Virus record (IMG/VR): IMGVR_UViG_3300009614_000107
Source of the DNA: a virus
Taxonomy: Duplodnaviria > Heunggongvirae > Uroviricota > Caudoviricetes
Reading direction: 5' to 3' (one strand)
Length of the DNA stretch: 64,000 bases
Position 1 is the first letter of the stretch. Each line of letters begins with the position of its first letter. Under the pieces are notes generated by a model. It saw nothing but the letters and a program-made list of their open reading frames with translations, was not told the DNA's origin and made no database searches. Shown piece after piece: positions 20,629 to 38,935 of the stretch. The translations under genes were made by a program, and so were the position numbers.

Positions 20629-22086
20629 TTATTCTCTGACGATGTAAAGGTTGTTTAATGACCTTGTTAGAGCTACAAACTTGCAGTTATCTTCCTCTTT
20701 CAACTGCTGGGGATTGCCCTGCTTTACAGCATATGGGTGTGGCATAAGATCATAGCGGAGTATGTAGACGTTCTCAGACTCAAGTCCCTTAGCCCTATGA
20801 ACACTGCTGAAAACTATGCCCTCAATATTGTCACGGAAAATGAATTTCACTTTTGATGTAAGATCGGTTATGGTTTTGCTCTCATCGGCTATAGCAAAGA
20901 TTGTGTCAACCCTGTCACTGAGGGTGAGTATTGATGCTTCCTTTTTCTGGATCTTCAACTTCTCGGTCTGCTTCTGCTGGTACTCTTTCAGACCGATTAG
21001 GAAAGTGCTGAGATCGGTAGCACCACACATCTTTACGACACGGTTGATTAGGTTCTCAAGCTGATCGCCTATGCTCTTGCCAACAATTATGACCTTCTTG
21101 CCGTTTCGAATAAGTTCGAAGGCTGGTTCTACGAGAGGGGCATTTGTTCGGCAGAGAACCATATCCTTCGGCTGGACTTTTTTCATAAATGTGGGATAGT
21201 CTATTTCCTCAACTTTTCCCTGCTTGGCATTTGGACCACATTCGTGTGTGATGTTTGGGAAGGTCTTGTTTACAAAGGCAACGACAGACTTTGGGTTTCT
21301 GTAACTGATGCTGAGTGGAAATTCGACAGCATCAAGCATATTTCCCAAGTAATCCATAGCATTGATTCCAGCTCCACGGAAACCGTATATGGCTTGGTTT
21401 CTGTCACCGATTACTATTGTGCATCCGTTGGGTTTCCTGATTTTGAGGATCATTTGAACCTGAGTCTCGTTCAAGTCCTGTGCCTCATCAACAAGGACAT
21501 AATCGTATTTTCTCATTGGGATATCGAGAACGACAGGAAGCCAGATCATATCATCATAATCGATTGTTTGTGTGTCTTTTTTAGATCGTTGTATAACATA
21601 ATTAACGGCCTTGAACACTGTTTTTTCATTACCATTTAATTTAATGTTATAGAAATCACACATTTCAATCATAGAATCTTCATCTTCTGAATCTGTTAAT
21701 GTGTTTTTCACATATTGAACAACTTTAGCAATTGTCTGCCAGAGCATTTTATTGACAACAGTGTCCTCTAGGATTGAGTATGTTTTTTGATTGTCCATAA
21801 TGAAATTACCATATACATTACGAAGTTCACGATTGCCAAGAGAATGAAGTGTTTTTGCTTCTCCACCAGGCATATTTGCTAGTTTTTCTTTTGCCTCAAG
21901 TTGATTCTTTTTATTAAAAACAAGATATATCCAGCTTTTATTTTTTGGTATATAATTTTTAATAAACTCTTGAATTGTTCGAGTTTTACCAGAGCCAGCA
22001 GTTGCACTCACTATGATGTTCTTATCTCCCTTTCTGCCAGCCTCAAAGATTGCCTTCTGGTATGAGGACGGGACGAATGTTGACAT
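20629..22086 (-). CDS. SF1 UvrD/Rep-like DNA helicase
   Basis: Walker A VSATAGSGKTRT, Walker B VLVDEAQDLN, IVIGDRNQAIYGFRGA (helicase motif III). Confidence 0.7.
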   Translation of the reverse strand: MSTFVPSSYQKAIFEAGRKGDKNIIVSATAGSGKTRTIQEFIKNYIPKNKSWIYLVFNKKNQLEAKEKLANMPGGEAKTLHSLGNRELRNVYGNFIMDNQKTYSILEDTVVNKMLWQTIAKVVQYVKNTLTDSEDEDSMIEMCDFYNIKLNGNEKTVFKAVNYVIQRSKKDTQTIDYDDMIWLPVVLDIPMRKYDYVLVDEAQDLNETQVQMILKIRKPNGCTIVIGDRNQAIYGFRGAGINAMDYLGNMLDAVEFPLSISYRNPKSVVAFVNKTFPNITHECGPNAKQGKVEEIDYPTFMKKVQPKDMVLCRTNAPLVEPAFELIRNGKKVIIVGKSIGDQLENLINRVVKMCGATDLSTFLIGLKEYQQKQTEKLKIQKKEASILTLSDRVDTIFAIADESKTITDLTSKVKFIFRDNIEGIVFSSVHRAKGLESENVYILRYDLMPHPYAVKQGNPQQLKEEDNCKFVALTRSLNNLYIVRE

Positions 22087-22088
22087 TT

Positions 22089-22313
22089 TTATACTTCCAA
22101 TGCTAATTCTCTACAAAGTTGTATAAACTCATTTTCTTGGCGTAGTGGATTAATATCCTCAATTTTTGAATTAAAAATATAACCACATTTTGGGCAGAGG
22201 CAATAATTCATCCAATAGCGATCTTCAATCAGCTTACGATAATAAAGTGGTTTTATATCACATTGTGGGCATACCCTATTTAGGATAATGTCCAAGTCCC
22301 TGTTGGTCAACAT
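22089..22313 (-). CDS. small zinc-ribbon protein
   Basis: CPQCD...CLCPKCGY. Confidence 0.45.
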   Translation of the reverse strand: MLTNRDLDIILNRVCPQCDIKPLYYRKLIEDRYWMNYCLCPKCGYIFNSKIEDINPLRQENEFIQLCRELALEV

Positions 22314-22364
22314 TTTATACGGTGTAGATGTGTTTAGTACTCTTATAAATATTGTGGATTATAG

Positions 22365-22570: not shown

Positions 22571-22576
22571 TAAGAC

Positions 22577-22664: not shown

Positions 22665-22700
22665 AACAGTGGTAAAAGGTATGTGTATGGTTATAAATAT

Positions 22701-23204
22701 TTAGATAAAAACAGGAATTTTGTTTATTTTCATTAAGTCTTTAATTGTTATTATTTTTACTTCATTTTCTATATAATTTCTAATATTTTCCCATCCCCAG
22801 ATACATTGTTCATTTTTAACATCTATAAATGGTTCATTATGTTCTTGTGCATTATCCATTGAAGATATTGGATATTGTAATAATTTTAAGAGTGGTATCA
22901 TCACTGCGTTTGTACCACCTTTATTTATTTGAATATAATATGAATATGGTTTTGCATATTTTAATTTACGTTCTAAAAAATGAACAGAATTGAATGAAAA
23001 ATAATCGTTCCAATATTTCTCGTGATTTTCTACTTCTATACCACCGACTAATGTTAGAGACTTCATAATTTGTATATCAATATCATATTTCTTTTCATTT
23101 CTTTTAATCCAAAACACATTTGATTTAATATTTTTAAAAACACAATTTATTGCAGGATCATTAAATTTTTTATTTGCTTTCTCGTCATATTCCTTATGAC
23201 CCAA
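22701..23204 (-). CDS. hypothetical protein (very AT-rich gene)
   Basis: ORF with markedly lower GC than neighbouring helicase. Confidence 0.4.
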   Translation of the reverse strand: MGHKEYDEKANKKFNDPAINCVFKNIKSNVFWIKRNEKKYDIDIQIMKSLTLVGGIEVENHEKYWNDYFSFNSVHFLERKLKYAKPYSYYIQINKGGTNAVMIPLLKLLQYPISSMDNAQEHNEPFIDVKNEQCIWGWENIRNYIENEVKIITIKDLMKINKIPVFI

Positions 23205-23208
23205 GAGA

Positions 23209-25005
23209 TCACCTAATAGCTTCCTTAAACCACTTCGGGAAGAATCCTATATTCTGGTTGAATAAGTCTGAGAACTTCCCATCAATTATGAAAGTCTCAC
23301 CCCAATCGTCAACACTTCTACAGACTCTACCATAAGTCTGGATTAGGAGCATTGCGGTTGTCCAGTTGTACCAGGATTGATCCTTTTCGACCCTCTTCTT
23401 AATCTGAGGATCACCGAGAGATGGATAGGGTACTTTAACTAGGACTTGCCATCTAGCCAAATCATCTTTTAGGTCGATGCCCATTTTCATACTCGGTGTT
23501 GTCATAATGCAAGGTGCTTTTGCTTGGAAGAATCTCTCGAAAGTATCTTCACGCCTCTCATCTGTGTCAATAAAGTTTCCTCTCTCATCTCTAAGAGAAA
23601 CATTGGTCATCATATACTGCTTGTATTTTGAATTAGCCATAATATATCTTGCAATTTCGTTATTGTGAGTGTGTATTACACCTTTGTGCTGCAAACGAGT
23701 TGGAATGATATCGTTGTCAATTATTCTAAGCATATTCGGTAGGAACTGATCCATTTCTTTGAAAATCGCTCTTCCAGCAAATTTTTGGTAGAGTGGACGA
23801 TGTTCGACTGGGAATGTTGAGTTGCCTATTCTGAAAAACTTAACCTCTTCTTCTATGCCTAAGTATTTCTGTAATTTTTCTTTGTCAAGTATTGTGGCCG
23901 ATATAAGAATGTGTTTGTCAGTGTGCTTGAAAAGCTGGTCAGAATATTTATTAATTGTAACTGGTTTGAAAGTGGCAGATGTTTTGTCTTTTAAGACAAC
24001 CCAGTTATCAATATCATCTTCTAGACTATCTAGCAACTCTGTGATTCTATTTGTTATATTTTCAACTGTTTTACGACTCTTCAGTTCTTGTACACGATTT
24101 GAACTATCACCTATATCCCTTTGGATTGAGGCGAAAGTTCCATACTTTTCTGAGATCCCTTTAAGTTCACCCTGGATATTCTGCAACCATTTTTCCCAAT
24201 CTTCCATTTTTGTGTATTCTGGTATTATTGGAAATGGCATATCTTTAAAATACATCCAAATACCATTAAATGTTCTCGAAGAAATTAAAACTTCAATATA
24301 GGTCATTAAAGTATTTTCGATTGTGTGTGCCTCATCAAAGATTCCTAAAAATCTTTTATTGAAGCTGTGTGCGTGATTTTGTTCGTGAAGGTAATAGGAA
24401 TAGTTGTGGATGGTAAGAGGTGAATGGATTGCCTTGTCCTTGGCTTGCCAGTAGGCACAGAGTGGATAAGAACAATTGCTCCAATCGAACTTAACTCCAA
24501 ACTTGTCACGATCTGCTCTCGGTGACGCATTATCATCTTCAAAATTTTCTGGGTCAATTTCAGCACCCATCTCCATATCGGTTAGTGCAGACTCACGTTT
24601 TACTTGGTTTGCCTTGTGGGGGCATTTGTAACCATTAATCAGGGTACACGGTGCTCTGTCTGCATAGAGTGTGTTCCCTATTCTCTCAGCCCAAAACTCT
24701 GGTTCCATATCTCCTGCTGTGAGAGAGCAGGGATAATTGCCCCTACCTTTGATTAGTGCTATGTCTGGAAAATCACGTAGATACTGTCCCTGTAGGTAGA
24801 TGTCGTTTACAACAAAGTGTGTAAGGTTGCCATATTCCTGATAGACATACTTAGCGATTGCATAGGCTACAGGTGACTTACCAAAGCCTGTAGGTGCTTC
24901 TAGGAAGATGTAATTGTAGGGATCAAGGTTGGCTTCTATAAGACTTAGGATTTCCTTCTGGTATGGACGGAATTCCTTGAATGGGAAACAGGCTTCAATT
25001 GCCAA
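23209..25005 (-). CDS. SF2 DEAH-box DNA helicase
   Basis: Walker A APTGFGKSPV, DEAH box IFDEAHTIEN, helicase C-terminal region. Confidence 0.65.
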   Translation of the reverse strand: MAIEACFPFKEFRPYQKEILSLIEANLDPYNYIFLEAPTGFGKSPVAYAIAKYVYQEYGNLTHFVVNDIYLQGQYLRDFPDIALIKGRGNYPCSLTAGDMEPEFWAERIGNTLYADRAPCTLINGYKCPHKANQVKRESALTDMEMGAEIDPENFEDDNASPRADRDKFGVKFDWSNCSYPLCAYWQAKDKAIHSPLTIHNYSYYLHEQNHAHSFNKRFLGIFDEAHTIENTLMTYIEVLISSRTFNGIWMYFKDMPFPIIPEYTKMEDWEKWLQNIQGELKGISEKYGTFASIQRDIGDSSNRVQELKSRKTVENITNRITELLDSLEDDIDNWVVLKDKTSATFKPVTINKYSDQLFKHTDKHILISATILDKEKLQKYLGIEEEVKFFRIGNSTFPVEHRPLYQKFAGRAIFKEMDQFLPNMLRIIDNDIIPTRLQHKGVIHTHNNEIARYIMANSKYKQYMMTNVSLRDERGNFIDTDERREDTFERFFQAKAPCIMTTPSMKMGIDLKDDLARWQVLVKVPYPSLGDPQIKKRVEKDQSWYNWTTAMLLIQTYGRVCRSVDDWGETFIIDGKFSDLFNQNIGFFPKWFKEAIR

Positions 25006-25948
25006 CGTCTATACCACCGAGTTGATATTTTCTTACGTGATTACGAATTGAAACCTCTGTCACGCCACAGGTTGTTGCTATAACCTTCTGGGAGATGTTA
25101 AGTTCCATCTTCTTGGATGCCAGATAAATTGCACAAGCTGCTACACAGAGTGGACTTGAGCCACTTGTGATTTTTAAGTCCTCTGCCTCTCTGCAAATCT
25201 TTAGGGCTAACATTTCAAATTCACCAGATAGGTTTAACTTAGAGGTGAACTGGGAAATAAAGATTGCAGGATCCCTGCGAGTTGGCTTGATCTTCATTGA
25301 TTCTACCATAAGGCGATAGCAACGAGCAATATCCTTCTTGTCGATGCCTGTGACCTCTTCAATATTCTCCATTGTTGTTGGAATGCCATTCTCTCTGAGG
25401 CTGTAGTACATACAGGCAACTAGGATTTGCTGGATTGAACGTCCTCTAATGAGGTTTATGGCCACCGATTTTGTAAATATATCAAAGATATCGTCATCTA
25501 TTGCATCTGGTATGCTGAGTCTGTATTTGTAGGTTGTATAAAGTGACCTTGCAGAGGATAGTGTTCTGGTTAGAGATGCCTTATCACCTGTTGCCCTATT
25601 GTTCATTCTTGAAAGACGAAGATATTCTATCTTCTTTTCTCCTGTAAGTTTCTTGTTTTGACCATCTAAATTTGACCAAGGAGCAATCCTTGTATGGCTT
25701 GAAGAGCCATTAACGACACCTGGATTTGTGATTGGCGTAGCCCTGTCAAGTTGCTGTGGCTCACCATCAAAGTTTCGCCATTCCTTGTCTCTGGAAATTA
25801 CTTGTTCCTCAAGAACAACCAACCCACAGTTTTTGCAAACAACCTCACCAGTAACATTATCGTGATAGAAGTCACGACTGCCACAAATTGGGCAGTTTAA
25901 TGGAGCATCTTGTGGGGCTTCGTGGGACGGGTCATTAGACATAAACAT
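24995..25948 (-). CDS. tfb: transcription factor B (TFIIB homolog)
   Basis: N-terminal Zn ribbon CPICGSRDFYHDNVTGEVVCKNCG; cyclin-fold core; start trimmed to MFMSNDP about 20 nt downstream of TATA at 25968. Confidence 0.8.
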   Translation of the reverse strand: MFMSNDPSHEAPQDAPLNCPICGSRDFYHDNVTGEVVCKNCGLVVLEEQVISRDKEWRNFDGEPQQLDRATPITNPGVVNGSSSHTRIAPWSNLDGQNKKLTGEKKIEYLRLSRMNNRATGDKASLTRTLSSARSLYTTYKYRLSIPDAIDDDIFDIFTKSVAINLIRGRSIQQILVACMYYSLRENGIPTTMENIEEVTGIDKKDIARCYRLMVESMKIKPTRRDPAIFISQFTSKLNLSGEFEMLALKICREAEDLKITSGSSPLCVAACAIYLASKKMELNISQKVIATTCGVTEVSIRNHVRKYQLGGIDVGN

Positions 25949-25967
25949 CACTCCTATTGTACCTACA

Positions 25968-25979
25968 TTTATAAATATT
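25968..25979. promoter_or_regulatory. TTTATAAATATT promoter element for tfb (near-leaderless)
   Basis: between PolB stop (25989) and tfb start. Confidence 0.55.
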
Positions 25980-25988
25980 ATGAGATTT

Positions 25989-28325
25989 TTATCCAAACCA
26001 CTCATTTAGGTTTGCGAAACCTTCAACATTTTCCCAACCTATTCCAACTGCCTCTAGGATCCTCTCTAATGGGGAACGCACGGTTCTTTCAATTACCCAA
26101 TCATAATCTATTTCTATACCCTTTCCGACTAGGCTTTGCTTGTCTAGATATGAACACCAATTTGTTTGTTCCCAAGAACCGTTGTTAATCCTTTTTACTC
26201 TAAAGTACTTTACAAGATCACCTGGAACGATTTCTTCTTTAAGGAATTTATTTGACCAAATTGCACCGTCATAATATTCACCACCAGCATCCTGTTTAAG
26301 GAAGTTCTTTGAGAGGTTGACGGGGATAACTATCTGGTCGATATCGTATGTTCCACCTCTGATATCAGCCATCAACTTACCCAACTTTGCAACAAACTCC
26401 TGTGCTTGTCCGTGCAGAACCATCTCGATACACTCTTTTTGCAGTTTGCGTGTTACCTCAGATGTGTTTCCACGGATGTAGTCGAAACCCTTGATGAGGA
26501 TGTAGTCGCAGGATCGACCATCTTCTCTAATAATACGCTGTGCATATCTCTTCTTAGCACCTGTCTCTTTGCCCTTTTTCTTAATGAAAAGGCTTTCAGA
26601 GGCATACCTATCCTCTTTGATTTTGAATTTGGCTGTCTCGGCTATGCCATTTTCCTCTGCCCACTTCAGTAACTCATCGTTCATTGCAGCTTCGAGTTCT
26701 GGTACACGTTCCATTGGGGCATCGATGAATATGGAATCTGTATCACCGTAGATGACCTTGAAACCCATAGATTCTGCTCTCTTCTGGAGTCTGTGTAAAC
26801 CATCTCCAGCAGTTTTGAGAACGAAGTCTGCCTTTGCCTTTGAGAAGATACGACTGCCCTTGAATGCAAAGTATCCCCAAGCACCTGAGAGGAAAGCCTT
26901 AACCTTATCTCGTGTGTCCTTTACAACCTTGTACTGTGCAGAACCAGGCTCATATTTCAGAAGTTCCTTGTCCCACACTTCACGTTCACTTAATAAATCA
27001 TTGATAACTGCTGGACCCAACTTGCCCCAGATATCTGGAGAAGTTTCCATAGGATAACTTCTGAGGATACTTGGGTAGTATCTGCTCATATCCAGCACGA
27101 CTAAGTTTGGATAAATCTTTGGCGGTGGAGTGAACACTACACCACCATACTCTAAGTCCTCTTCACTCTGCTCCTCTGGAGAGGATGGTAGAACCATTCC
27201 AAGTCCGTGTGCTTTTCTAAGCCAGAAGCAGTCGTGACGCTTAATGTGTTCGAGTGTGTAGTTTATGTCGTGAAGCCCTACAAAGTTCTTCTCTCCCCAG
27301 AAGGACTGTATGAAGCGGTATTCCTTCCACTCACCAGTGTTGACATCCTTGAAGCCTCTGTCGAGCTTGACACAGTAGTCAACGTCCATCTTATTGTATA
27401 GAATGAACTCATCTCTCTTTGTAGGGTCAAGGTATGTATCGATTCTGAAGAATTCGGACACCATATCCTCTTGTTTGATTATCCCTTCCCTGATAACAAC
27501 TTCCTTTAGTCTGTTACCTAGGTTTGGTCTAGTCTTTGTGTAGGCATTATGTAGGTCGAAGATTTCTGTTCCAGCCCAATCAACCTTGAGATTGAACTGT
27601 TTCTTAGCCCAAGCATCAAAGTACTCGGTATCAAATCTGATATTCCAGCCTGTAACTATATCTGGCTTGAGGTAGTCAAAATACTTCTGGATATAATCAA
27701 TTAGAGCAACGTAAGAAGCAACGTGAACAACTTTCCAGTTCTCCTCTCTTTGCTCAACCTGTGTGGCCAAGAACCGATCATCAACAACAAACGTGATATA
27801 TTGCTCACTTTTGTTGTCCCAGAAGGTGACACAGATAATTGGCTGAGTTGGGTTGTTCTTGTTTGGGAATCTGATGCCCTGAGCCTTTGTCTCAATGTCC
27901 ATATAGACAACTAGAGGCTGGAGAACAACATTGGCTGGTTTTATGGTGTCAAATGGAATGATTGAAGAGTTCCCATCATAGTAGAATGAGGATTTGACAC
28001 CTGTGTCAATCAGCATACGTTCTACAAATTCAATATCTGCTTCCCAATGCTTTGAGAAATTGTCTCTGTGGTTACTTACTTCAAGTGGATTTTGAACAAC
28101 TATTTTTACTAACTTTTCACCGTCTTTTGAAATGAACCCAGGCTCAATGCGTTTAATCCAAGGTGCATTCTCTGGAATTGATTCACCATCGTGGACGTAC
28201 ATATAAGGGTCGAACTTGGAGATTCTGAACATTCTCTTCTCTCCAGTGTTCGAGCGACAGTAAATATTAATGAAGCCTGTCTCTCCATCGTAATGACCTT
28301 TAACGTACTGCCAGACAGTGGACAT
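25989..28325 (-). CDS. polB: family B DNA polymerase with 3'-5' exonuclease domain
   Basis: Exo I MDIET, Exo II WNIRFDTEYF, Exo III YNKMDVDY, Pol A LDMSRYYPS, Pol C VIYGDTDSIFI. Confidence 0.9.
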   Translation of the reverse strand: MSTVWQYVKGHYDGETGFINIYCRSNTGEKRMFRISKFDPYMYVHDGESIPENAPWIKRIEPGFISKDGEKLVKIVVQNPLEVSNHRDNFSKHWEADIEFVERMLIDTGVKSSFYYDGNSSIIPFDTIKPANVVLQPLVVYMDIETKAQGIRFPNKNNPTQPIICVTFWDNKSEQYITFVVDDRFLATQVEQREENWKVVHVASYVALIDYIQKYFDYLKPDIVTGWNIRFDTEYFDAWAKKQFNLKVDWAGTEIFDLHNAYTKTRPNLGNRLKEVVIREGIIKQEDMVSEFFRIDTYLDPTKRDEFILYNKMDVDYCVKLDRGFKDVNTGEWKEYRFIQSFWGEKNFVGLHDINYTLEHIKRHDCFWLRKAHGLGMVLPSSPEEQSEEDLEYGGVVFTPPPKIYPNLVVLDMSRYYPSILRSYPMETSPDIWGKLGPAVINDLLSEREVWDKELLKYEPGSAQYKVVKDTRDKVKAFLSGAWGYFAFKGSRIFSKAKADFVLKTAGDGLHRLQKRAESMGFKVIYGDTDSIFIDAPMERVPELEAAMNDELLKWAEENGIAETAKFKIKEDRYASESLFIKKKGKETGAKKRYAQRIIREDGRSCDYILIKGFDYIRGNTSEVTRKLQKECIEMVLHGQAQEFVAKLGKLMADIRGGTYDIDQIVIPVNLSKNFLKQDAGGEYYDGAIWSNKFLKEEIVPGDLVKYFRVKRINNGSWEQTNWCSYLDKQSLVGKGIEIDYDWVIERTVRSPLERILEAVGIGWENVEGFANLNEWFG

Positions 28326-29469: not shown

Positions 29470-30027
29470 TTATCCTCCAATAGTAAACAACCCAATATCA
29501 TTGAAATTTATCTTTGCATATTTACCAAACAATTCAATGGCTTTACTATCATAGGCTCTAGCTGCATCTTCTTCTGTATTAAATGTGCCTAAATATATTA
29601 TTGTTCCATCTTTCACTATACGACTATACCATTTATTATTGTTTTTACTCACACCTTTATATTTGCTTAAACACATTTTTCTATTTCGTGTTTTCTGCTT
29701 TCTACTATTAAATTTATTTTGCTGGTTTGAAACTATTCTTAAATTACACTTACGATTATCAAGACCATCACCATTAATATGATCGATTTGCTCATTTGAA
29801 TTTACATTTAAAATTAATCTATGTATTGAATTTCCTTTGTTGCCAACTCTTCCAGATTCTGCATACCAGATACCATCTCTTTTATTGGCATACCAAGTAT
29901 GATTTTTTACATTATCATAATCTTCTGAATCTATAATAGCAGATTTATTTTGAGTTAATGAAATTATACAAATTTTACTTAATTTATCTTCAATTATTTT
30001 ATTATGTTTTCTGCTACCAAATTTCAT
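29470..30027 (-). CDS. HNH-AP2 homing endonuclease
   Basis: HNH IDHINGDGLDNRKCNLRIVSNQQN plus AP2 domain YKGVSKNNNKWYSRIVKDGTIIYLGTFNTEEDAARAYD; extremely AT-rich. Confidence 0.75.
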   Translation of the reverse strand: MKFGSRKHNKIIEDKLSKICIISLTQNKSAIIDSEDYDNVKNHTWYANKRDGIWYAESGRVGNKGNSIHRLILNVNSNEQIDHINGDGLDNRKCNLRIVSNQQNKFNSRKQKTRNRKMCLSKYKGVSKNNNKWYSRIVKDGTIIYLGTFNTEEDAARAYDSKAIELFGKYAKINFNDIGLFTIGG

Positions 30028-31064: not shown

Positions 31065-31282
31065 GTTTTATGGATGTGCCATTTCTGTCCATTTCTAGTG
31101 ACAGAAACCCTATCTGCACGTATTATATGCTTGCCACATATTGGACAAGTTTCTAGATTGGGCTGGATGTGACCGTTCTCGAAGGTCATCTCTGGATGCA
31201 CAATCTTTACTTTGTTATGGTAAAAAATTGGATTGTTTGGATTTCCCATTACTTTTTCTCCTCCACTACTAACCTCTTCCAA
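31019..31282 (-). CDS. zinc-ribbon protein
   Basis: CPICGKH...HKTCRK. Confidence 0.4.
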   Translation of the reverse strand: MEEVSSGGEKVMGNPNNPIFYHNKVKIVHPEMTFENGHIQPNLETCPICGKHIIRADRVSVTRNGQKWHIHKTCRKRQHEIVKVKED

Positions 31283-32346
31283 ATATCTACTTTTCCTGGT
31301 TCACAGGTGATATCTGCCTTGTGTCCTGTTGGCATATCTGTATGCTTGGATGATATGATGTGGGCATAGAATCTTGGGATTCCTGTTTCCTTATTGATGT
31401 CAACCGTGTTCTCTATCACGATGTCTGTCTGTTCCTCAACGATGTCAACCCAGATTGGAACTTTCTTCTTCTCGACTACCATTCCAGCGATCTTGGTTTC
31501 TTCCCACTCGTACTTGGTGCAGAAGATGACACCCTGCTTGACGATGCTTCCTATCTTGATGAACAGTTGCTTGATGTAGAGCCTACGATCCTTCCAGTAC
31601 TGCCATTCCACACCCTGTGTGAGCTTGAGGTTGTTCCTGAACCTCATAACGTTCTCGGCTATAGACTTGTACTCTTCGAACCCGTCTATGATTATCCAGT
31701 CTGGATATTCTGACTGAGCACCTGACTTAATCTTGTCTAGGATAGCATTGATGAATTGGAATGTAATCTCTGAGGACATTAGTGTTGCATCTGGAGAACT
31801 GTAGTCCATATACTTGATGGCGTTCATAATGGTAATTCTTGTATCAGACTTGAACATTGTGAACCAAGCCTCAACTGTCTTGTTATCAAAAGACAGTGCA
31901 AGGACTTTTCCAGGTGCTGAAAGTGCCAGAGTTGACTTAGATGTACCTTTACCACCAAAAATGGTGATGTATTTGAGGCTACTCGGTGCTTGTGGTGTGA
32001 AATCAAATTCCTTTGGCATCTCAGGTAGAGGTGCATCGGGAAGAGCATTCTTTCTTGTATCTAATGAAGAAAGTCCTGCCAATAATGGATTAGGTATTGG
32101 TTGTGCCATCTTTGGTGTTTCCTTCATATCAAGAAGTCCACCACCTGGATTTCCTTTTGGATTAAGTGATTCCTGTGGTGCTATAGTTTGTGCTGGTGCT
32201 TGCTCTATTGGTTTGAGAGGTTCTTTTGGAGGAACTTGTTCCTTTGGCTTTTCCTCAACTACTGGTGCTTGGGGTACAGGAGCAGGAGTTTCCTTCTTCT
32301 CCTCTACCTTTGGTGGGCCTTTCTTAAACAGTTCCTCTATAGACAT
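31249..32346 (-). CDS. RecA-superfamily P-loop ATPase with Pro-rich N-terminal region
   Basis: Walker A FGGKGTSKST, Walker B-like IIIDGFEEY; N-terminal PAPVPQAPVVEEKPKEQVPPKEP. Confidence 0.5.
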   Translation of the reverse strand: MSIEELFKKGPPKVEEKKETPAPVPQAPVVEEKPKEQVPPKEPLKPIEQAPAQTIAPQESLNPKGNPGGGLLDMKETPKMAQPIPNPLLAGLSSLDTRKNALPDAPLPEMPKEFDFTPQAPSSLKYITIFGGKGTSKSTLALSAPGKVLALSFDNKTVEAWFTMFKSDTRITIMNAIKYMDYSSPDATLMSSEITFQFINAILDKIKSGAQSEYPDWIIIDGFEEYKSIAENVMRFRNNLKLTQGVEWQYWKDRRLYIKQLFIKIGSIVKQGVIFCTKYEWEETKIAGMVVEKKKVPIWVDIVEEQTDIVIENTVDINKETGIPRFYAHIISSKHTDMPTGHKADITCEPGKVDIWKRLVVEEKK

Positions 32347-32351
32347 TTAGT

Positions 32352-33338
32352 TTAACGCTCCTCAATTCCTTGGCTCATACTGAAGATTGGCATTATCAAG
32401 CCAGCCTTCATACTAGTTTTGACCTGACCTGTCTTTTCATCCTTCTTATTGGATACAGCACCTAGGAATGCAGCGTAGTCGTTCTCAGACTGTGCCTGTA
32501 GGAACTCTGGTGCAGCATAGCAATCAATACCTGGATAGACTGTAAAGTTCTTAGCGTCTTGGTAGGCGGTTTCCTTCACTGTAAGGTCAGTGATTGTGCA
32601 TCGACCATACTTGACAGGTTGACCATCAAGTTCGATTACATTTCCTGCATCATCCTTGGAGTTGTTGATTCTCGGTGGACCTGAGAAGTTGCCAAGTATG
32701 CAACGCCAGTCACAAGGATCAACAAAGCCATCAGACTTAGTTTTTGATGGATTTGCCTTTGCTTGCTCAATTGTCACTATTGGAGTATTGAGGATTTGAC
32801 ATAGAGCGTAGACATCTAGACTCTGAGGTCTGGGTGAACCGAATGAACACCTACCATCGTAGGTGAAATCACCCTCTACACCACCAGCACTCCTGCGTCT
32901 TGCAAGAACTGCTGTGTAGATATTTAGAGGATTGAGGACTTTATAGATACCAGCATATTTCCCATCAGATGAGAGTCTGTAAATCTTGAGTCCAGTTCCT
33001 TCTCTAAGACCTAAGAATAGAGTTGCACTAGCACGTTTGGAACCCTTTGCGACTGTCATACCAGATGTACCTAGATAAACGATATCATAGTTATTCACTG
33101 GTGGCATATTCACTATTTGGTTCCAGACAGTTGAGATTGCTATTGTTTGTGCCTTCGCAATCTTCTCATCTGCGGAGAGATTCGGGTGTACAATGTTGAC
33201 TTGTTGAATACTCATCTTAAAAACTCGTAAGTATTCCTGAAGGATAACTTCCTTCGAATTTCCTGTCCTTGAAACCAGTTGAGCAATCTGTGCTTCAATG
33301 GCTTCAGGGAGTGTTTGAGGATGTTCAATGACGGACAT
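32352..33338 (-). CDS. hypothetical protein
   Basis: 328 aa in replication module. Confidence 0.45.
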   Translation of the reverse strand: MSVIEHPQTLPEAIEAQIAQLVSRTGNSKEVILQEYLRVFKMSIQQVNIVHPNLSADEKIAKAQTIAISTVWNQIVNMPPVNNYDIVYLGTSGMTVAKGSKRASATLFLGLREGTGLKIYRLSSDGKYAGIYKVLNPLNIYTAVLARRRSAGGVEGDFTYDGRCSFGSPRPQSLDVYALCQILNTPIVTIEQAKANPSKTKSDGFVDPCDWRCILGNFSGPPRINNSKDDAGNVIELDGQPVKYGRCTITDLTVKETAYQDAKNFTVYPGIDCYAAPEFLQAQSENDYAAFLGAVSNKKDEKTGQVKTSMKAGLIMPIFSMSQGIEER

Positions 33339-33370
33339 AACAGCGTCAATACGTAACCCCCACTATAAAC

Positions 33371-33382
33371 TTTATAAATATT
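33371..33382. promoter_or_regulatory. TTTATAAATATT promoter element (minus-strand gene 32352..33338)
   Basis: divergent intergenic region. Confidence 0.55.
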
Positions 33383-33420
33383 ATCGGCTAGACGGATTTC
33401 TTGTTTTTCATAATTTAAAA

Positions 33421-33432
33421 AATATTTATAAA
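33421..33432. promoter_or_regulatory. AATATTTATAAA promoter element in plus orientation (rfcS)
   Basis: reverse-complement copy about 80 nt upstream of plus-strand gene 33514. Confidence 0.55.
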
Positions 33433-33513
33433 GTGTCTGCCTTGTATTTGTATGGTTTCAAATGCTTCCAACTAGCTTAGTGATTTCACAAGTTTTCAAT
33501 GTGAGGGATCGGT

Positions 33514-34497
33514 TTGAGTAATCAAAGACTTACTGAGAAATATAGACCCCAAAAATGGGATGATGTAGTCGGTCAGGACAAGATAATCAAGTCCATTAAG
33601 AACACCGTTGACAGGGCTAAAATGATGAAAGGTGAGGGTATTACTCCACATTTCTTATTTGTTGGTCCTCCAGGTTGTGGTAAAACAACAGTTGCAGAGA
33701 TTGTAGGTAGGGAACTTGGGTTTGAGACTATAGAGTTTAATGCCTCTGATGATAGAACACTTGTTTTTGTTAGAGAGGAAATCAAGAAACTAGCTGCATT
33801 TGCTGGTGTTCACGTAATCATTCTGGACGAGTTTGACGAAATGATCAAGCCAGCTCAGATGGCTATGAAGAGGATTATGGAAACAACTGATTCAATTTTC
33901 ATACTCTTGGCAAACCACGATTGGAAGATTGAAGATGCTATCAAGAGTCGATGTGCAAAGTTTACCTTTGAGAGAATCAAAGATGATATTATTGAGAAGA
34001 AGATTGTATCCATAATTATGGCAGAGGGAATCAAGTTCTCACCTACAGAAGAAGTCAAACAGGGTCTGAAGGACTTGGTAAAGAATGCCGATGGTGATCT
34101 TAGGAAGGCTATAAACGACTTGGAAAGTATCACAGACGCAAGCAAATACATTACAAATGATTCCGTTGCTTTACTCCAGAGGCCAATCGGACTTGGTTTG
34201 GTTGCTCTAACTTATGCTTTACAGGGTGACTTTGATAGTGCAAAGGAGAACATTGAGAAAACATATGTTGAGGGAAAATATGATCCAAGAAAGACTATTC
34301 ACGAACTTTACGAAGCTATTCCAAAACTACAGCTAGATCAGGAAATTAAAATCAGAATGTATGAGAAGTTAGCCAGAACAGATGCTGATATGAAATATGG
34401 TGGGGATCCTGTAATCCACCTGATTGGCTTCGTAGCTTTTGTTTGGCTACTACCACACCTTAGTAAGTGTCCAGTTCTAAGTACAAGTGGGGTTTAA
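33514..34497 (+). CDS. rfcS: replication factor C small subunit (clamp-loader AAA+ ATPase)
   Basis: Walker A GPPGCGKTT, NASDDR RFC box, DEFDEM, SRC motif (IKSRCAKF). Confidence 0.8.
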   Translation: MSNQRLTEKYRPQKWDDVVGQDKIIKSIKNTVDRAKMMKGEGITPHFLFVGPPGCGKTTVAEIVGRELGFETIEFNASDDRTLVFVREEIKKLAAFAGVHVIILDEFDEMIKPAQMAMKRIMETTDSIFILLANHDWKIEDAIKSRCAKFTFERIKDDIIEKKIVSIIMAEGIKFSPTEEVKQGLKDLVKNADGDLRKAINDLESITDASKYITNDSVALLQRPIGLGLVALTYALQGDFDSAKENIEKTYVEGKYDPRKTIHELYEAIPKLQLDQEIKIRMYEKLARTDADMKYGGDPVIHLIGFVAFVWLLPHLSKCPVLSTSGV

Positions 34498-34981
34498 GAT
34501 GCCAACACAATCAAAGGTCATAGGTAACAATGTTGTCACTAACCCAATTGGAGAAAAGATAGAGGATAATTACATACATATCTATCCAGGCACTGAAGTA
34601 ACAATAAGGTTGGCAAAAAGTTTTGCAGACGAACTTAGTGACCTTGGATATGTTGGTGTAGAAAGGACAGACGATAGAACAAAGTCTGTGGATTTGCCTG
34701 TAAACATAATCCATATGCAGGATGAATTAATGATATCATTCTACAGGCACGATCTTGGTGAACCTATGCCCTGTAAGTTACATAACTTTGTAATTGACGG
34801 TATCTCAGATACAATACAGGACATACTCCGATCTAGGGCAGATGTTGTGTCAAGAATTAAATATGAGGGTGTGTCGGTAGTAGTGGGCGAACTTCCCCAA
34901 GTTATTCATATGTACTTCGATATGTTGAAGTTAGAGAAACTTGGAAGGAAGGAAGAGAAGTTAGATTCGTGGTTTGGGTGA
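34487..34981 (+). CDS. hypothetical protein
   Basis: ORF overlapping rfcS stop. Confidence 0.45.
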   Translation: MGFKMPTQSKVIGNNVVTNPIGEKIEDNYIHIYPGTEVTIRLAKSFADELSDLGYVGVERTDDRTKSVDLPVNIIHMQDELMISFYRHDLGEPMPCKLHNFVIDGISDTIQDILRSRADVVSRIKYEGVSVVVGELPQVIHMYFDMLKLEKLGRKEEKLDSWFG

Positions 34982-34987: not shown

Positions 34988-35725
34988 TTGCAAATGGGTC
35001 CAATTAGTCAGTCACAGATGTATTATGCAGAACATTGCCCACATAGTTGGTATTTCTATAGAATCAAGGCACAACAAATCCAAGGTGATATGTCCTATGC
35101 CACAATTGGAACCGTGATTCACGAATCAATTGAGGAGTATTTCAAATCAATCAGTGAAAATCCACATAGTGGACAAATCACAGGTACATTTAAAACGATT
35201 GTTGACAAGAACTGGAGTGTTTACGAATCTTTACTCAAGGAGTACTCTGGTAGAAAAGACAAGTGTGTTAATAACTTTGTCAACTTCGAAGTAAATAGAG
35301 CAGCTACAGCAAAGAAATACAAGCCAACTCTTATCGAACAAGATTTGAAGGCAATTATCAAGAGGATAGAGTACAGGGCAATAATAGACGCTTACTGGGA
35401 AGATGAGGGACTGATAGCAGACTGGAAAACAGGGAATAAGAATATGCTAAGTCCACAGGATTATCTTCAGGGACAAATTGAGACAATGCTCCTGAGAGAG
35501 CACGGATACAACGTTAAGAGAGTTGTCTTTGTAAGTCTCTTTTCTGGACTTGTACTTGAACTTCCAAAGGTAACAGATGAATACGTTCACGAGAAAGCAA
35601 TGAAAATGATAAATTATTGGAATACAGGTATATTCCCAAAAATTAGAGGACAAGGTTGCAATATGTGTAACTGGAATCTGAGATGTAAATTAGAAGATAG
35701 AGGGATATGTTTATGGCAACTATAG
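34988..35725 (+). CDS. Cas4/RecB-family PD-(D/E)xK nuclease with Fe-S cysteines
   Basis: N-terminal HCPHSWYF, C-terminal CNMCNWNLRC. Confidence 0.6.
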   Translation: MQMGPISQSQMYYAEHCPHSWYFYRIKAQQIQGDMSYATIGTVIHESIEEYFKSISENPHSGQITGTFKTIVDKNWSVYESLLKEYSGRKDKCVNNFVNFEVNRAATAKKYKPTLIEQDLKAIIKRIEYRAIIDAYWEDEGLIADWKTGNKNMLSPQDYLQGQIETMLLREHGYNVKRVVFVSLFSGLVLELPKVTDEYVHEKAMKMINYWNTGIFPKIRGQGCNMCNWNLRCKLEDRGICLWQL

Positions 35726-35988
35726 ACGAGCCAGTTTCTCTACCAAAATCTGGTAGATGCAAACGTTGTGGCAGACAACTATCAGATCACACTAGCATTC
35801 TTTTTGAAATGGGACCAGTCTGCCGTGCTAAAGAAGGAATGAAAATAACAAAACCTAGGGTGCATAAAGTAGATTTAACTATCAAGAAACCGAAGGTACA
35901 TACATTTAAATTTAAGAAGGTAGAAGGTACTGCACCCACCTTCGATTTCGAAGATTGGTTCAGCAATAAAGAGGAGAAAGAGCAATGA
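35707..35988 (+). CDS. zinc-ribbon protein
   Basis: CKRCGRQ...PVCRAK. Confidence 0.45.
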   Translation: MFMATIDEPVSLPKSGRCKRCGRQLSDHTSILFEMGPVCRAKEGMKITKPRVHKVDLTIKKPKVHTFKFKKVEGTAPTFDFEDWFSNKEEKEQ

Positions 35989-36881
35989 GATGGGATAAAA
36001 TAGCACCAAAGACAACTTCCGAGTTGCTAGGAAATCCCAAGGCTCACGAGTCATTGATGAGATACGTTAAGGAACGTACTGCTGTATGTTTAGTCGGTGA
36101 TCCAGGCTCAGGAAAGACTACCGCAGCATATGTGGTGGCTCGTGAGTTAGGTTTGAATGTGATGGAGCTCAATGCTTCTGACGAGAGAACAAAGGAATCT
36201 TCCCTTCCAGAGTTTGTTGAACTCTGCCAACAAGTACCAATGACAGGAGAAGGACTTCTTTTCCTGTTAGATGAGGTAGATGGTATGGGTTCGGTTGATG
36301 GTAAGGGAGCCTGGGAGTATGTCAAAGATATTTTGAAGTACTCCAAACACGCTGTTGTGTTGACTTGTAATGATGATTATAAAATTCCTGCTACAGTGAA
36401 AGGTTTACTTGTAACTGTTAAGTTGATAAAACCCAATGTAAAAACTGTTGAAAAATATGCTGCTAAAATTGCAAAGGAAAATTTGCGTACAACTGCACCT
36501 ACAACTGATGAATTGACATCTGACTTTAGAAATGCTATTAATGTTGCACTATTTGGTGGAGAACCCTACAAAGAACAGAATACATACACATTGACACACA
36601 AGTTCTTCGTTGAAGGGGATGTGGAGAGGATTGATGATGTTCCTCTACCTTTCCTCTTTGACAATGCCCCAAACTATCTAAAGGGGTGGGACTTGTTCCA
36701 GTTTTACAGAGTACTCAGAATATCAGCTATTAGCAATCAAACTGGAGCACTGTCCTTATCCCCCAGAGGTTCTGGGACATATGCCAGATTCCCTGGCTAT
36801 ATGAGAATGCGATCTAGTCGCAAGAAGGGTGAGGATGATGTCGAATCAACAACAACAGACGAAAACGGGCAGAAGAGTTGA
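35985..36881 (+). CDS. rfcL: RFC large-subunit-like clamp-loader ATPase
   Basis: Walker A GDPGSGKTT, NASDERTKE, LDEVDGM; lacks SRC motif. Confidence 0.7.
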   Translation: MRWDKIAPKTTSELLGNPKAHESLMRYVKERTAVCLVGDPGSGKTTAAYVVARELGLNVMELNASDERTKESSLPEFVELCQQVPMTGEGLLFLLDEVDGMGSVDGKGAWEYVKDILKYSKHAVVLTCNDDYKIPATVKGLLVTVKLIKPNVKTVEKYAAKIAKENLRTTAPTTDELTSDFRNAINVALFGGEPYKEQNTYTLTHKFFVEGDVERIDDVPLPFLFDNAPNYLKGWDLFQFYRVLRISAISNQTGALSLSPRGSGTYARFPGYMRMRSSRKKGEDDVESTTTDENGQKS

Positions 36882-38322
36882 ACTAACTTCTTCTGGTTTG
36901 GTTAGAGAACTAACCGAGTTTATGCTAGATGGGGTAAACACCCATCCAGATTGGGTAGAAAGTTTGGCAGTAGCTTTAGTTGGTATGTTGGCTGGAAAGA
37001 ACAGGTATATGGTCAACAACCTTGGAAAGGTCAGGGCTAATCTATTCTTCATTATAGTTGGGGCTAGTGGACTCAGTATGAAGTCTGTGCCACTTATGAA
37101 GGTGGCTAGACCTATTCTGAAGAAACTTACTAAGGCTGTAAATGATGACGTACTGAAAGATGCTGGAATCAAGGAAGAGGAATTCCTAGCACGTAAGATG
37201 GCCAACAACAAGGCAGATGCTAAGGAGAGAGGAAAGGACGAGTGGAAAAAGGAGAAGGCTTGGCTTGATGAGTTGGAGAAAAGTATGGTTGATTTTGTCA
37301 CACCTACCAGCTTCACGTCAGAACTTCTCACAACATTCCTGAGCAAGCACCCACAGGGTTTAATCTGTGGTGACGAGTACACCAAGATGTTCAAGGGAAC
37401 TTTGAAGAAAGATTACCTTACAGACAATATGGAAGATCTCAGTCGAATGTATGACTGTGATATGGAGAAGAAGGGTACTCAGACTAGGGGAATCGAGAAC
37501 CCAGAGGATGCCTATGTTAGCTTTACTTCCGCTACTACATATTATCTTCTGACAATAATGACCGATGACTTTTTCCTACAGGGAACAGGTAATCGGATAC
37601 TCTGGATTCTTGATGAGGAACTTTATCCTATGGATATCGAGAAGGAAGAGGGTAAGTTCTTCTGGGACTTGAACAGGGAAACAGAGTTCAACAACAAGAT
37701 GGATGAACTGGTAATCAAGCTAATGAATGTTAGGTATCTCCCAGAAGGAATCATAATGCCTAACTATGCTGCTGGAATCATGCTGGATAGATATAGGATA
37801 GAGATGTATAATGAGGCTGTAAAGAAGTTCAATGAGGATATTCTGAATAAGGATGCTAACCTAATTTCCAGACTTGCACAGAACTCTATGAAGTTGGCTT
37901 TGGCACATGCTATTGGTAGATATGCTGTAGATGACCGTGGAACATATCACGATGTTACACAACTTGAGATTGTAGAAGAGGATGCTAAATGGGCAATTGA
38001 AAAGACCAGAAAACACTATGAATACTATAAGAGAATGTGGGAAGTTGCTTCAACAATTAAGATTGGTACTATGAAGAATTACAAGGCTGACCAAGAACGT
38101 GTACTATTCATAATGGATAAGATAGAGAGTCAGGGAAAGCATATGACAACAGCCAATCTCAGAAAACACACTGGTTGGGATAAGGCAGAATGTCAGAAGT
38201 TGCTGGATACTATGGTTTCGAATGGTCAGTTAAAGTACCTTGAAGGACTGTCTGGTATTCATAAATATGGATATTATACACACAGTACTGAAGAGGATCC
38301 TCAAGATCAAAAGACTGTGTGA
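36829..38322 (+). CDS. hypothetical protein (497 aa) with degenerate P-loop-like segment
   Basis: VGASGLSMKS; no confident family. Confidence 0.5.
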   Translation: MRMMSNQQQQTKTGRRVELTSSGLVRELTEFMLDGVNTHPDWVESLAVALVGMLAGKNRYMVNNLGKVRANLFFIIVGASGLSMKSVPLMKVARPILKKLTKAVNDDVLKDAGIKEEEFLARKMANNKADAKERGKDEWKKEKAWLDELEKSMVDFVTPTSFTSELLTTFLSKHPQGLICGDEYTKMFKGTLKKDYLTDNMEDLSRMYDCDMEKKGTQTRGIENPEDAYVSFTSATTYYLLTIMTDDFFLQGTGNRILWILDEELYPMDIEKEEGKFFWDLNRETEFNNKMDELVIKLMNVRYLPEGIIMPNYAAGIMLDRYRIEMYNEAVKKFNEDILNKDANLISRLAQNSMKLALAHAIGRYAVDDRGTYHDVTQLEIVEEDAKWAIEKTRKHYEYYKRMWEVASTIKIGTMKNYKADQERVLFIMDKIESQGKHMTTANLRKHTGWDKAECQKLLDTMVSNGQLKYLEGLSGIHKYGYYTHSTEEDPQDQKTV

Positions 38323-38398
38323 TATGAGCTTTGATTATAATATATATTGGATTATAAAGAGCGAAAGATCGCTCTTCGCTTTTATCGCTTTTCGCTTT

Positions 38399-38935
38399 TC
38401 ATTTTCTAAGAAGGCTATATCCTTCATATAACTTTGGATATAATTTATAATCATAGATTAGAACTGCTGGATGTAATAATGGTAAAATAACTCGTCCTTC
38501 CCAGAAGAAGGCATTACCGTGTTCCATTGAGATTGATGCTCCTGGCTTGAAGAATTGAAGGGCAGAATTTCCAAGAGGTGCGATCTTCTGAGGGTTGACC
38601 ATATTTATTTCCATCCGAAGATAAGGAGAACAAGTTTGAATTTCTATTGGAACAGGTGCTCGATTCTTGTTACCATCTGTCGGTCTGCATTTAACAATGT
38701 TTGTTATAAAAAGATCAGACCTTTTTATGCCTATATCCTTTAGAAGTCTATCAAGCATCTGTCCAGCTTTACCAACAAATGGCAGTCCCTGAAGATCCTC
38801 ATCTTTTCCAGGTGCTTCACCAACAAGCATTGTTTTTGCTTGAGGGTTCCCAACTCCTATACAAACGTGATGTCTGTGAATTTTGATATCAGTTGGACAT
38901 CTTTTGCAGTCTATCTCGATACCGTTGATAGACAT
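38399..38935 (-). CDS. uracil-DNA glycosylase, family 4
   Basis: GEAPGKDEDLQGLPFVGKAGQMLDRLL and C-terminal LLHPAVL; N-terminal Cys. Confidence 0.8.
   Translation of the reverse strand: MSINGIEIDCKRCPTDIKIHRHHVCIGVGNPQAKTMLVGEAPGKDEDLQGLPFVGKAGQMLDRLLKDIGIKRSDLFITNIVKCRPTDGNKNRAPVPIEIQTCSPYLRMEINMVNPQKIAPLGNSALQFFKPGASISMEHGNAFFWEGRVILPLLHPAVLIYDYKLYPKLYEGYSLLRK

Follow-up and report, generated by a model that had tools for sequence, protein, structure and literature searches.

A replication, repair and TFB gene block in a ~197-kb element from peat, probably a virus of an anaerobic archaeon

Introduction

What kind of replicon keeps a replisome, DNA repair enzymes and a basal transcription factor together in one block of genes? 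The question is raised by positions 20629 to 38935 of a 64-kb stretch of DNA (the window, by which we mean the whole stretch analysed) that was matched, via one of its proteins, to the first 64 kb of contig JAFMOA010002524.1 (197,240 bp) from the SPRUCE peat experiment. A preliminary description had read the block as that of an autonomous replicon with its own replisome and transcription factor B (TFB) rather than of a cellular chromosome. This reading is upheld by the ~197-kb contig, by the lack of cellular markers in the ~81 kb of sequence inspected (the 64-kb window, 10 kb to its left and 7 kb to its right), and by the divergence of the proteins. We propose that the region is probably the replication, repair and TFB block of a ~197-kb double-stranded DNA virus of an anaerobic peat archaeon. 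We consider a virus more likely than a plasmid-like or Borg-like element because the block is homologous to modules of bona fide tailed viruses, because the gene content is of the type found in large lytic viruses, and because the depositors themselves called the contig viral.

Replication genes

Pfam, NCBIfam and profile searches confirm, at the positions first given for them, helicases of superfamilies 1 and 2 (SF1 and SF2), TFB, a family B DNA polymerase (PolB), an archaeo-eukaryotic primase (AEP), a small subunit of replication factor C (RFC-S), a Cas4-like nuclease, a family 4 uracil-DNA glycosylase (UDG), and a T4 endonuclease V-type glycosylase. PolB (25989..28325, minus strand) is a single uninterrupted open reading frame (ORF) of 778 aa (Pfam DNA_pol_B, E=1e-22; exo1, E=2e-11). 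Its Exo I, II, and III and Pol A, B, and C residues, described as intact, are indeed invariant in an alignment of 18 sequences (the window protein and 17 relatives), namely D143/E145, D232, Y310/D314, D412/Y417, K476, and YGDTD at 526-530. In relatives P0005, P0006, P0007, P0017, and L088, PolB has ~300 additional aa and contains intein or LAGLIDADG domains, of which the window PolB has none.

The primase gene (28436..29464, minus strand) has no Pfam match, and was identified through a profile of 8 sequences that matches PriS and PriL structures in the PDB. Specifically, i) the N-terminal part matches PriS 1zt2_A (E=1.3e-4) and also the polymerase domains of nonhomologous end-joining/LigD proteins; ii) residues 204-316 match PriL 5of3_B weakly (E=0.013); iii) D62xD64 (the DxD motif), G93/G96, D138, and C242/H254/C314 are invariant in all 8 sequences; and iv) an SGxKGxH motif is conserved, its His lying in the 'KGIH' of the window protein. 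The AEP assignment stands on these motifs and on the PriS match; of the C-terminal Cys cluster that had been described, we retain C242, H254, and C314 as three invariant putative ligands within a part that is PriL-like at the level of that weak match. The protein looks like a PriS-like catalytic domain fused to a Cys/His domain resembling the C-terminal domain of PriL, and among GenBank viruses the family is found in Druskaviridae only. Between the primase and clamp genes lies the embedded homing endonuclease of the preliminary description, an HNH-AP2 protein (29470..30027, minus strand; Pfam HNH_3, E=1e-5; AP2, E=6e-8).

Sequence and profile searches of the PDB with the proteins encoded at 30273..31064, 31249..32346, 32352..33338, and 36829..38322 returned nothing useful, so that the sliding clamp and the single-stranded DNA (ssDNA)-binding protein (SSB) were resolved by structure prediction only. 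The first of these (30273..31064, minus strand; 263 aa) had been noted as a possible clamp, and has no Pfam match (PCNA_N and PCNA_C included) and no PHROG or PDB sequence match. An AlphaFold2 model built from a 10-sequence alignment (pLDDT 89.5, pTM 0.86) has a PCNA fold: the best Foldseek match in the PDB is Archaeoglobus fulgidus PCNA 1rxm_A (E=3.5e-12, TM 0.70/0.75, full length), and there are 522 matches with E<=1e-3, of which all 50 listed are PCNA or viral clamps. Judged by this modelled fold and by a position beside RFC, PolB, and primase, the protein is predicted to be a PCNA-type sliding clamp.

The suggestion that 32352..33338 (minus strand; 328 aa) encodes an OB-fold SSB also proved sound. 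In the AlphaFold2 model (pLDDT 93.8), a domain of three helices at the N-terminus precedes two OB-fold barrels, as in RPA-like proteins; Foldseek matches in the PDB include Pyrococcus abyssi RPA 8aaj_A (E=4e-10), tandem-OB bacterial SSBs, and RPA70 DBD-A/B (probability 1.0), and those in BFVD include R4T7G8 (E=7e-16), baculovirus LEF-3, and phage SSBs. The TM scores are low (0.2-0.54), which would most simply reflect a differing relative orientation of the two barrels. The family is small, with 59 representatives among 1.84 billion proteins, and Pfam matched no family in any of the 43 members scanned. From the fold, and from a position beside AAA_24, primase, and PolB in 14 loci, we infer that the protein binds ssDNA.

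Adjacent to the SSB gene is that of a P-loop ATPase (31249..32346, minus strand; 365 aa; PHROG Sak4-like, E=7e-4) with a Pro/Glu/Lys-rich N-terminal extension of ~120 aa. First called RecA-like, it keeps the P-loop ATPase assignment and is placed more exactly in the AAA_24 family, being 39% identical to a relative annotated as PF13479 AAA_24 (L098:4550-5500).

The SSB operon on the minus strand and the clamp-loader operon on the plus strand diverge from a 175-bp control region (33339..33513) containing two copies of the 12-mer AATATTTATAAA that face outward, at 33371-33382 (minus strand) and 33421-33432 (plus strand); the divergent SSB/RFC-S junction is also found in relatives L099 and L092. 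The clamp-loader operon, all on the plus strand, begins with RFC-S (33514..34497; Pfam AAA, Rad17, and Rep_fac_C; NCBIfam RFC small, E=3e-58), in which the SRC motif is visible. It continues with a 164-aa ORF product (34487..34981) that has no Pfam or PHROG match and no homologue in any fetched locus; a Cas4-like PD-(D/E)XK nuclease with a Cys cluster (34988..35725; Pfam PDDEXK_1, E=5e-13); a small DUF6011 zinc-ribbon protein (35707..35988; Pfam DUF6011, E=3e-8); a short RFC large-subunit (RFC-L)-like protein; and a DUF3987 protein. The RFC-L-like protein (35985..36881; 298 aa), recognized in the preliminary description and now supported by PHROG (clamp loader, E=1e-27) and NCBIfam (RFC large, E=9e-26, residues 4-147 only), consists of the AAA+ module alone, and on these matches is best described as a truncated RFC-L. 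The DUF3987 protein (36829..38322; Pfam DUF3987, E=2.7e-8, above cut-off) has a C-terminal winged-helix-like region (EAP30, E=1e-4) and conserved residues G78/S80/K85 and D182/E183, has no PDB match, and occupies the same position in L084/L116/L142; we regard it as a candidate helicase or primase partner. The unannotated genes interleaved in the block had been put forward as novel replisome components, and this has held for the clamp and the SSB; the product of 34487..34981 matches no family, and the DUF3987 protein has the standing of a candidate only.

Helicases and repair enzymes flank these genes. On the minus strand are a UvrD/PcrA-like SF1 helicase (20629..22086; Pfam UvrD-helicase, E=8e-29; UvrD_C, E=8e-11) with a 60% identical homologue in L092; a 167-aa protein without Pfam or PHROG match (22701..23204) whose D...E-x-K pattern suggests a putative PD-(D/E)XK nuclease; an XPD/DinG-type SF2 helicase with a DEAH box (23209..25005; Pfam Helicase_C_2, E=9e-18, ResIII, and DEAD_2; NCBIfam YoaA/rad3/DinG) with homologues 43-50% identical in 5 relatives; and, beyond the clamp-loader operon, the family 4 UDG (38399..38935; Pfam UDG, E=4e-33), which has a GEAPG motif and passes NCBIfam TIGR00758 (family 4) with 148.4 bits against a cut-off of 125.3. 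Farther off is the T4 endonuclease V-type pyrimidine-dimer DNA glycosylase (6447..6788, minus strand; Pfam Pyr_excise, E=5.7e-14), which is 53% identical to homologues in relatives L099 and L007. An Hjc-like resolvase, said to lie nearby, was not detected among the ORFs scanned; an ERCC4/XPF-type nuclease is encoded ~1.5 kb outside the left end of the window.

TFB and the promoter motif

The TFB gene (24995..26005, minus strand; Pfam Zn_Ribbon_TF, E=5e-13; two TFIIB cyclin repeats, E=2e-26) lies directly 3' of PolB, both here and in 8 distinct relatives in which TFB itself is only ~30% identical. The protein matches NCBIfam NF001658 (TFIIB) with E=4e-66 and 223 bits, under the cut-off of 384, and its identity to the TFBs of viruses in GenBank (Halorubrum tailed viruses, ARV3, and Sulfolobales virus YNP2) does not exceed 28%. 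By sequence, it is a divergent and apparently element-specific TFB.

Allowing at most one mismatch, AATATTTATAAA occurs 26 times in the window (1.6 copies expected), with 21 of the 26 on the minus strand, which is the main coding strand. Copies lie 21-27 nt upstream of five of the seven tRNA genes, and 19-32 nt upstream of an ATG at ~8 genes including TFB and SSB, a spacing as for the archaeal TATA box of transcripts with short or absent leaders. Per-gene promoters, as envisaged in the preliminary description, are not what we find: the ORFs are packed in tight operons, and the motif stands before operons and tRNA genes. The genes are arranged in operons behind a conserved archaeal TATA-like motif.

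The longest TFB ORF, which starts at 26005, contains a perfect copy of the motif (25968-25979) in its initial 20 codons, 19 nt before the first internal ATG; Met20 or Met22 (~25948/25942) is therefore the probable start of TFB, which would have a promoter of its own, be nearly leaderless, encode ~315 aa, and not overlap PolB. AATATTTATAAA is frequent in this element, present in the relatives that carry TFB, and nearly absent from those that do not; this tracking of the motif with TFB supports, in a suggestive way only, a TFB that steers transcription to the promoters of its own element.

Relatives and divergence from cellular proteins

About 22 homologues of PolB were found among metagenome proteins, the best being 54% identical, on contigs of up to 213.7 kb; a sister element is represented by contigs of 193.8, 162.8, and 101.7 kb. 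The gene order SSB-AAA_24-(clamp)-primase-PolB is kept in relatives whose PolB is down to ~28% identical, and the order RFC-S-Cas4-RFC-L-DUF3987 and the divergent SSB/RFC-S junction are likewise recurrent. Over all fetched loci, homologues are present of primase in 27, ERCC4 in 27, RFC-S in 24, AAA_24 in 21, RFC-L in 21, SSB in 14, and TFB in 11. The relatives also carry genes for 7-deazaguanine synthesis, dCMP deaminase, and CCA-adding enzyme. Clusters for 7-deazaguanines of the queuosine/archaeosine type (FolE, QueC, QueD, and QueE) lie beside the module in L090, L091, L088, L089, and L004, and at 36.8-42.6 kb in the halovirus HCTV-1; no 7-deazaguanine genes were seen in the window.

Scanning IMG/VR and the GTDB species genomes with the single PolB protein gave no match. 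When an alignment of PolBs served as query, one IMG/VR match was the cultivated tailed halovirus HCTV-1, and the closest of 185,579 species genomes had a PolB 36% identical, encoded together with the same viral-type module on a short contig. That contig (L084 = L116; JAHJRN010000055.1, 20-25 kb) carries SSB, AAA_24, primase, PolB, RFC-S, Cas4, RFC-L, and DUF3987, and comes from a metagenome-assembled genome (MAG) labelled Patescibacteria; an archaeal-type module in such a bacterial CPR MAG is most likely a binning error. Some distant relatives lie on contigs binned with MAGs of archaea (Nitrosotalea, Desulfurococcaceae, and Methanosuratincola), and a plasmid database yielded only two haloarchaeal plasmids with PolBs 24-25% identical. 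A metagenome collection scanned with a protein encoded past the window's right end gave no match, which places the element outside that collection. The scores of TFB, RFC-S, and PolB amount to 58%, 65%, and 17%, respectively, of the NCBIfam cut-offs for cellular equivalogs, and all three are divergent, non-host-like versions.

Source and layout of the element

JAFMOA010002524.1 is one of the 5006 virus populations (vOTUs, for viral operational taxonomic units) deposited as JAFMOA010000001-5006 from the SPRUCE peat experiment by ter Horst et al. 2021 (PMC8626947). The vOTU calls were made by VirSorter (high-confidence categories) and/or DeepVirFinder; this contig is not described individually in the paper, nor is it mentioned in the supplementary tables (PMC8626947). 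The same element was assembled as JGI 3300018005 Ga0187878_1000020 (197,232 bp), with an offset of 124 bp relative to the window, and two contigs, of 197,619 and 197,232 bp, encode a clamp protein with 100% identity to that of the window. A 98-kb contig from another sample extends 10 kb beyond the left end of the window, across the end of the 197-kb contig and through dense genes, which indicates that this end is an assembly break; the genome map thus appears to be circular or circularly permuted rather than linear with defined ends.

The window has a G+C content of 31-44% and is ~95% coding. It contains 116 non-overlapping ORFs of at least 50 aa, which mostly abut or overlap by 1-4 nt; the co-orientation remarked on earlier is evident in the 98 of them on the minus strand, and a large share are shorter than 100 aa, many of 50-100 aa. 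Seven tRNA genes (Trp, Lys-UUU, Arg-UCU, Lys-CUU, Ile, Met, and Thr) lie between 15236 and 22664 on the minus strand (ARAGORN; Rfam tRNA, 47-66 bits).

Many tiny ORFs lie in the 10-kb extension to the left of the window, together with genes for ERCC4, a polynucleotide-kinase-like protein, and NrdD, a class III (anaerobic) ribonucleotide reductase; the 7 kb to the right encodes a PLD-like protein, a glycosyltransferase, and further unannotated proteins. NrdD (PF13597, 636 aa; L094:14159-16069) lies ~3-5 kb outside the window on its left side, and within the window is a radical-SAM activase-like protein, probably NrdG-like (1456..2022, minus strand; Pfam Radical_SAM/Fer4_12). Together the NrdG-like and NrdD genes point to an anaerobic host.

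Other genes of the element

A glycosylation or sugar-modification island of lower G+C (0.31-0.35) spans ~20 kb of the window (44462-63722, minus strand) and continues to ~71 kb in L096. Encoded there are at least 3 glycosyltransferases of the GT2 family, methyltransferases, an NAD-epimerase, a B12/radical-SAM enzyme, and a GHMP kinase, together with transaldolase-like, WbqC-like, and PIG-L-like proteins and an EpsG-like membrane protein. To its left, among the few plus-strand genes outside the clamp-loader operon, is one for a 758-aa protein (40871-43147) whose N-terminus resembles a signal peptide and which has a GH5 (cellulase-family) domain, a second glycoside-hydrolase region, and C-terminal membrane helices; this protein could be an envelope or exopolysaccharide depolymerase.

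Collagen-like Gly-X-Y repeats occur in two membrane-anchored proteins (19297-20142, minus strand, and L094:17752-18504); the PHROG 'tail fibre' matches of both cover these repeats only and are no evidence for a tail. A 614-aa SPFH/Band-7 protein (13331-15175, minus strand; Pfam E=9e-21) is unusual for a viral-type genome. Three paralogues (43543-44235, minus strand; L096:194-556; and L096:623-1168), one of them with DUF5661, have in common an N-terminal motif of ~25 aa, roughly V-x-x-H-x-R-x-x-x-G-x-x-V-x-V-x-x-Y/H-x-R/S-G, which may be a targeting or binding motif. Small DUF5658 proteins are recurrent in the element and its relatives (3311-3658, minus strand; L001/L002 1850-2617; L092 9249-9611).

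Virus, extrachromosomal element, or chromosome

Several points weigh against a virus: i) in ~81 of the ~197 kb, neither Pfam and PHROGs, applied to the larger ORFs, nor phmmer, queried with the structural proteins of HCTV-1, recognised a gene for capsid, portal, terminase, or tail, nor did PHROGs find anything structural on large ORFs beyond the window or from distant relatives; ii) the element and its close relatives are not in IMG/VR, where the best match to PolB with the alignment as query is 27% identical, nor among GenBank phages, no listed virus having a PolB more than 24% identical; iii) the depositors' viral call is automated and not specific to JAFMOA010002524.1; and iv) the role of TFB at AATATTTATAAA is putative, and the motif could equally be a consensus promoter of the host. 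The first two of these would suit a non-viral extrachromosomal element (ECE) of an archaeon, whether megaplasmid, Borg-like element, or jumbo ECE, which had taken a replisome and TFB from a virus and is never packaged. So would the large glycosylation island and the secreted and membrane proteins, such as Borgs have (PMC12660748), and the precedent of jumbo circular ECEs of Methanoperedens that carry PolB and PriS but no capsid genes (PMC13444090). Yet no Orc1/Cdc6, ParA/ParB, relaxase, or integrase was seen in the ~81 kb, and Tandem Repeats Finder detected in the window only short low-copy repeats, mostly within genes, and no pervasive tandem arrays of the Borg type; the proteins are far from cellular equivalogs, whereas those of the Methanoperedens ECEs are reported to be host-like (PMC13444090); bona fide tailed viruses have a homologous module; tRNAs, a homing endonuclease, and numerous tiny ORFs, all present here, typify large lytic viruses; and the contig was classed as viral by the depositors' pipeline. 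On balance we find a non-viral ECE doubtful, and a virus the likelier reading.

Residence in a chromosome is much harder to sustain. An integrated provirus, or a defective remnant of one in an archaeal chromosome, might explain why some distant relatives are binned with archaeal MAGs; in the window and its flanks, however, we saw no integrase, attachment-site repeats, or flanking cellular genes, contigs of 197.2-197.6 kb have been recovered repeatedly, and another assembly bridges the contig end, all of which makes such a provirus very improbable. We give still less credence to a chromosome segment from some tiny or symbiotic archaeon (DPANN-like, for example) in which replication genes had clustered by chance, even though PolB, PCNA, RFC, AEP primase, RPA-like SSB, and TFB are of archaeal cellular type and tRNA genes are present. 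The preliminary description had named rRNA operons, ribosomal proteins, and core metabolism contiguous with the region as signs of an ordinary small archaeal chromosome: no Rfam family other than tRNA reached threshold in the window, rRNA included, and no ribosomal-protein or core-metabolism genes are among those annotated in the ~81 kb. In addition, ~197-kb contigs recur and the map closes on itself; TFB, RFC-S, and PolB score far below the cellular equivalog cut-offs (17-65% of them); many ORFs encode fewer than 100 aa; and the closest PolB in 185,579 species genomes, at 36% identity, is itself on a contig with a viral-type module.

A model for the element

If the element is the virus that we favor, its replication would be largely independent of host replication proteins. 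The primase would start synthesis on a template coated with SSB, RFC would load the viral PCNA, and PolB would extend; the DUF3987 protein is a candidate for the replicative helicase, and the repair enzymes would protect a large AT-rich genome. Viral TFB, together with TBP (TATA-binding protein) and RNA polymerase of the host, would direct transcription from the AATATTTATAAA promoters of the element, a takeover that can be likened to the redirection of bacterial polymerase by phage sigma factors.

A fuller statement of the model, which we put forward tentatively and with somewhat less assurance than the viral reading itself, is that the element represents an archaeal virus lineage of ~160-213 kb, above the 143.9 kb of HGTV-1, with a near-complete replisome, a TFB always encoded directly after PolB that reprograms host RNA polymerase onto a virus-specific B recognition element (BRE)/TATA promoter (AATATTTATAAA), and virion genes too divergent for profile searches and for the IMG/VR pipelines.

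If the element is a true virus, it has the largest genome yet described for a virus of archaea, and a ~200-kb lineage in anoxic peat, a methane-relevant habitat, would raise the size ceiling of archaeal viruses. To our knowledge, only a few groups of archaeal viruses (magroviruses and some haloviruses) have a whole archaeo-eukaryotic replisome, and none exceeds 144 kb. A very divergent PCNA and RPA-like SSB, both verified by predicted fold, and a fused PriS/PriL primase should be useful for tracing the movement of replication modules between cells and viruses, and the conserved PolB-TFB pair with its sharp promoter motif offers a testable case of takeover by a virus-encoded basal transcription factor in archaea.

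Comparison with known viruses and elements

Large extrachromosomal replicons of archaea such as Borgs and jumbo ECEs resemble the element in having PolB, glycosylation genes, and mostly uncharacterised proteins, and differ from it in that, in the sequence inspected, we see no tandem-repeat arrays, no linear map, and no Orc1 or metabolic load. Whether such replicons count as viruses or as plasmids is not yet settled (PMC12660748, PMC13444090). Borgs measure 0.6-1 Mb, are pervaded by tandem repeats, and have long inverted repeats at their termini. They are linear, and ~10x larger than mini-Borgs (PMC12660748). The Borg-like option of the preliminary description is accordingly set aside for an element of ~0.2 Mb with a circular or permuted map and without pervasive tandem repeats in the window, and identification with the jumbo ECEs of Methanoperedens is set aside in view of their Orc1 and host-like proteins, including PolB and PriS (PMC13444090).

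Six genes have homologues in the Druskaviridae (HCTV-1, HVTV-1, and HCTV-5; Caudoviricetes, ~102-104 kb). These are PolB (22-24% identical), RFC-S (27-28%; 28% for that of HVTV-1/HCTV-1), the fused AEP primase (24%; gp95 in HCTV-1), and, in HCTV-1, RFC-L (E=1.4e-14), the PD-(D/E)XK nuclease gp87 (E=2.5e-11), and gp99, which aligns with the window SSB family by hhalign (probability 99.4, E=4e-21). The replication block of HCTV-1 lies beside TerL and comprises FolE/QueC/D/E/F, RFC-L, PolB, HNH endonucleases, the PD-(D/E)XK nuclease, RFC-S, gp95, and gp99; the annotation of the block that we inspected lists neither a TFB nor an XPD-like helicase, an SF1 helicase, or a UDG, whereas the window has all four. 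Other candidate counterparts failed: gp96 does not match the clamp profile, gp98 does not match the DUF3987 protein, and gp100 RadA does not match the AAA_24 protein, RadA-type ATPases being found there instead. Nor could any counterpart of the HCTV-1 TerL, portal, or major capsid protein be detected by phmmer in the ~81 kb. The genome described here is ~2x larger, comes from anoxic peat rather than brine, and is remote in sequence; with only six remote homologues, at 21-28% identity or at profile level, we do not assign it to the Druskaviridae and speak of a related module only.

Two proteins of HCTV-1 (NC_021330.1) that are recorded as 'hypothetical' can be annotated from this comparison: gp99 (57954-59045) as an RPA-like SSB with two OB folds, to which a likely SSB function is thereby assigned, and gp95 (53939-55090) as an AEP primase, in support of newer Druskaviridae records where the gp95 homologue is already labelled primase.

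The magroviruses (Magrovirales, Aoguangviridae), 90-100 kb viruses of marine Poseidoniales, are reported to encode an SF1 helicase, TFB, RFC-S, PCNA, PolB, and AEP primase; separate genes specify the N- and C-terminal parts of their PolB, they have an MCM helicase and an ATP-dependent ligase, and the genes for replication form one cluster and those for morphogenesis another (PMC10768690). Likened by this reported gene content, magroviruses and the window both have a near-complete archaeal-type replisome with TFB. In the window, by contrast, PolB is a single ORF and neither MCM nor ligase was seen, and the element is from peat rather than the sea and measures ~197 rather than ~92 kb; the unsplit 778-aa PolB, the lack of MCM in the window, and the peat source speak against membership in the Magrovirales or Aoguangviridae.

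We conclude that the module has an origin in common with replication modules found in tailed viruses of archaea, namely those of the Druskaviridae and, by gene content, the Magrovirales; the lineage, with contigs of 160-213 kb and roughly double the usual size, is uncharacterised, and the type of module, an archaeal virus replisome with TFB, is already known. In scale the nearest comparison is HGTV-1 (Hagravirus capitaneum), at 143,855 bp the largest archaeal virus genome to date (10.1101/2025.11.07.687168), which like the present element has many tRNAs and which the present element exceeds by ~53 kb.

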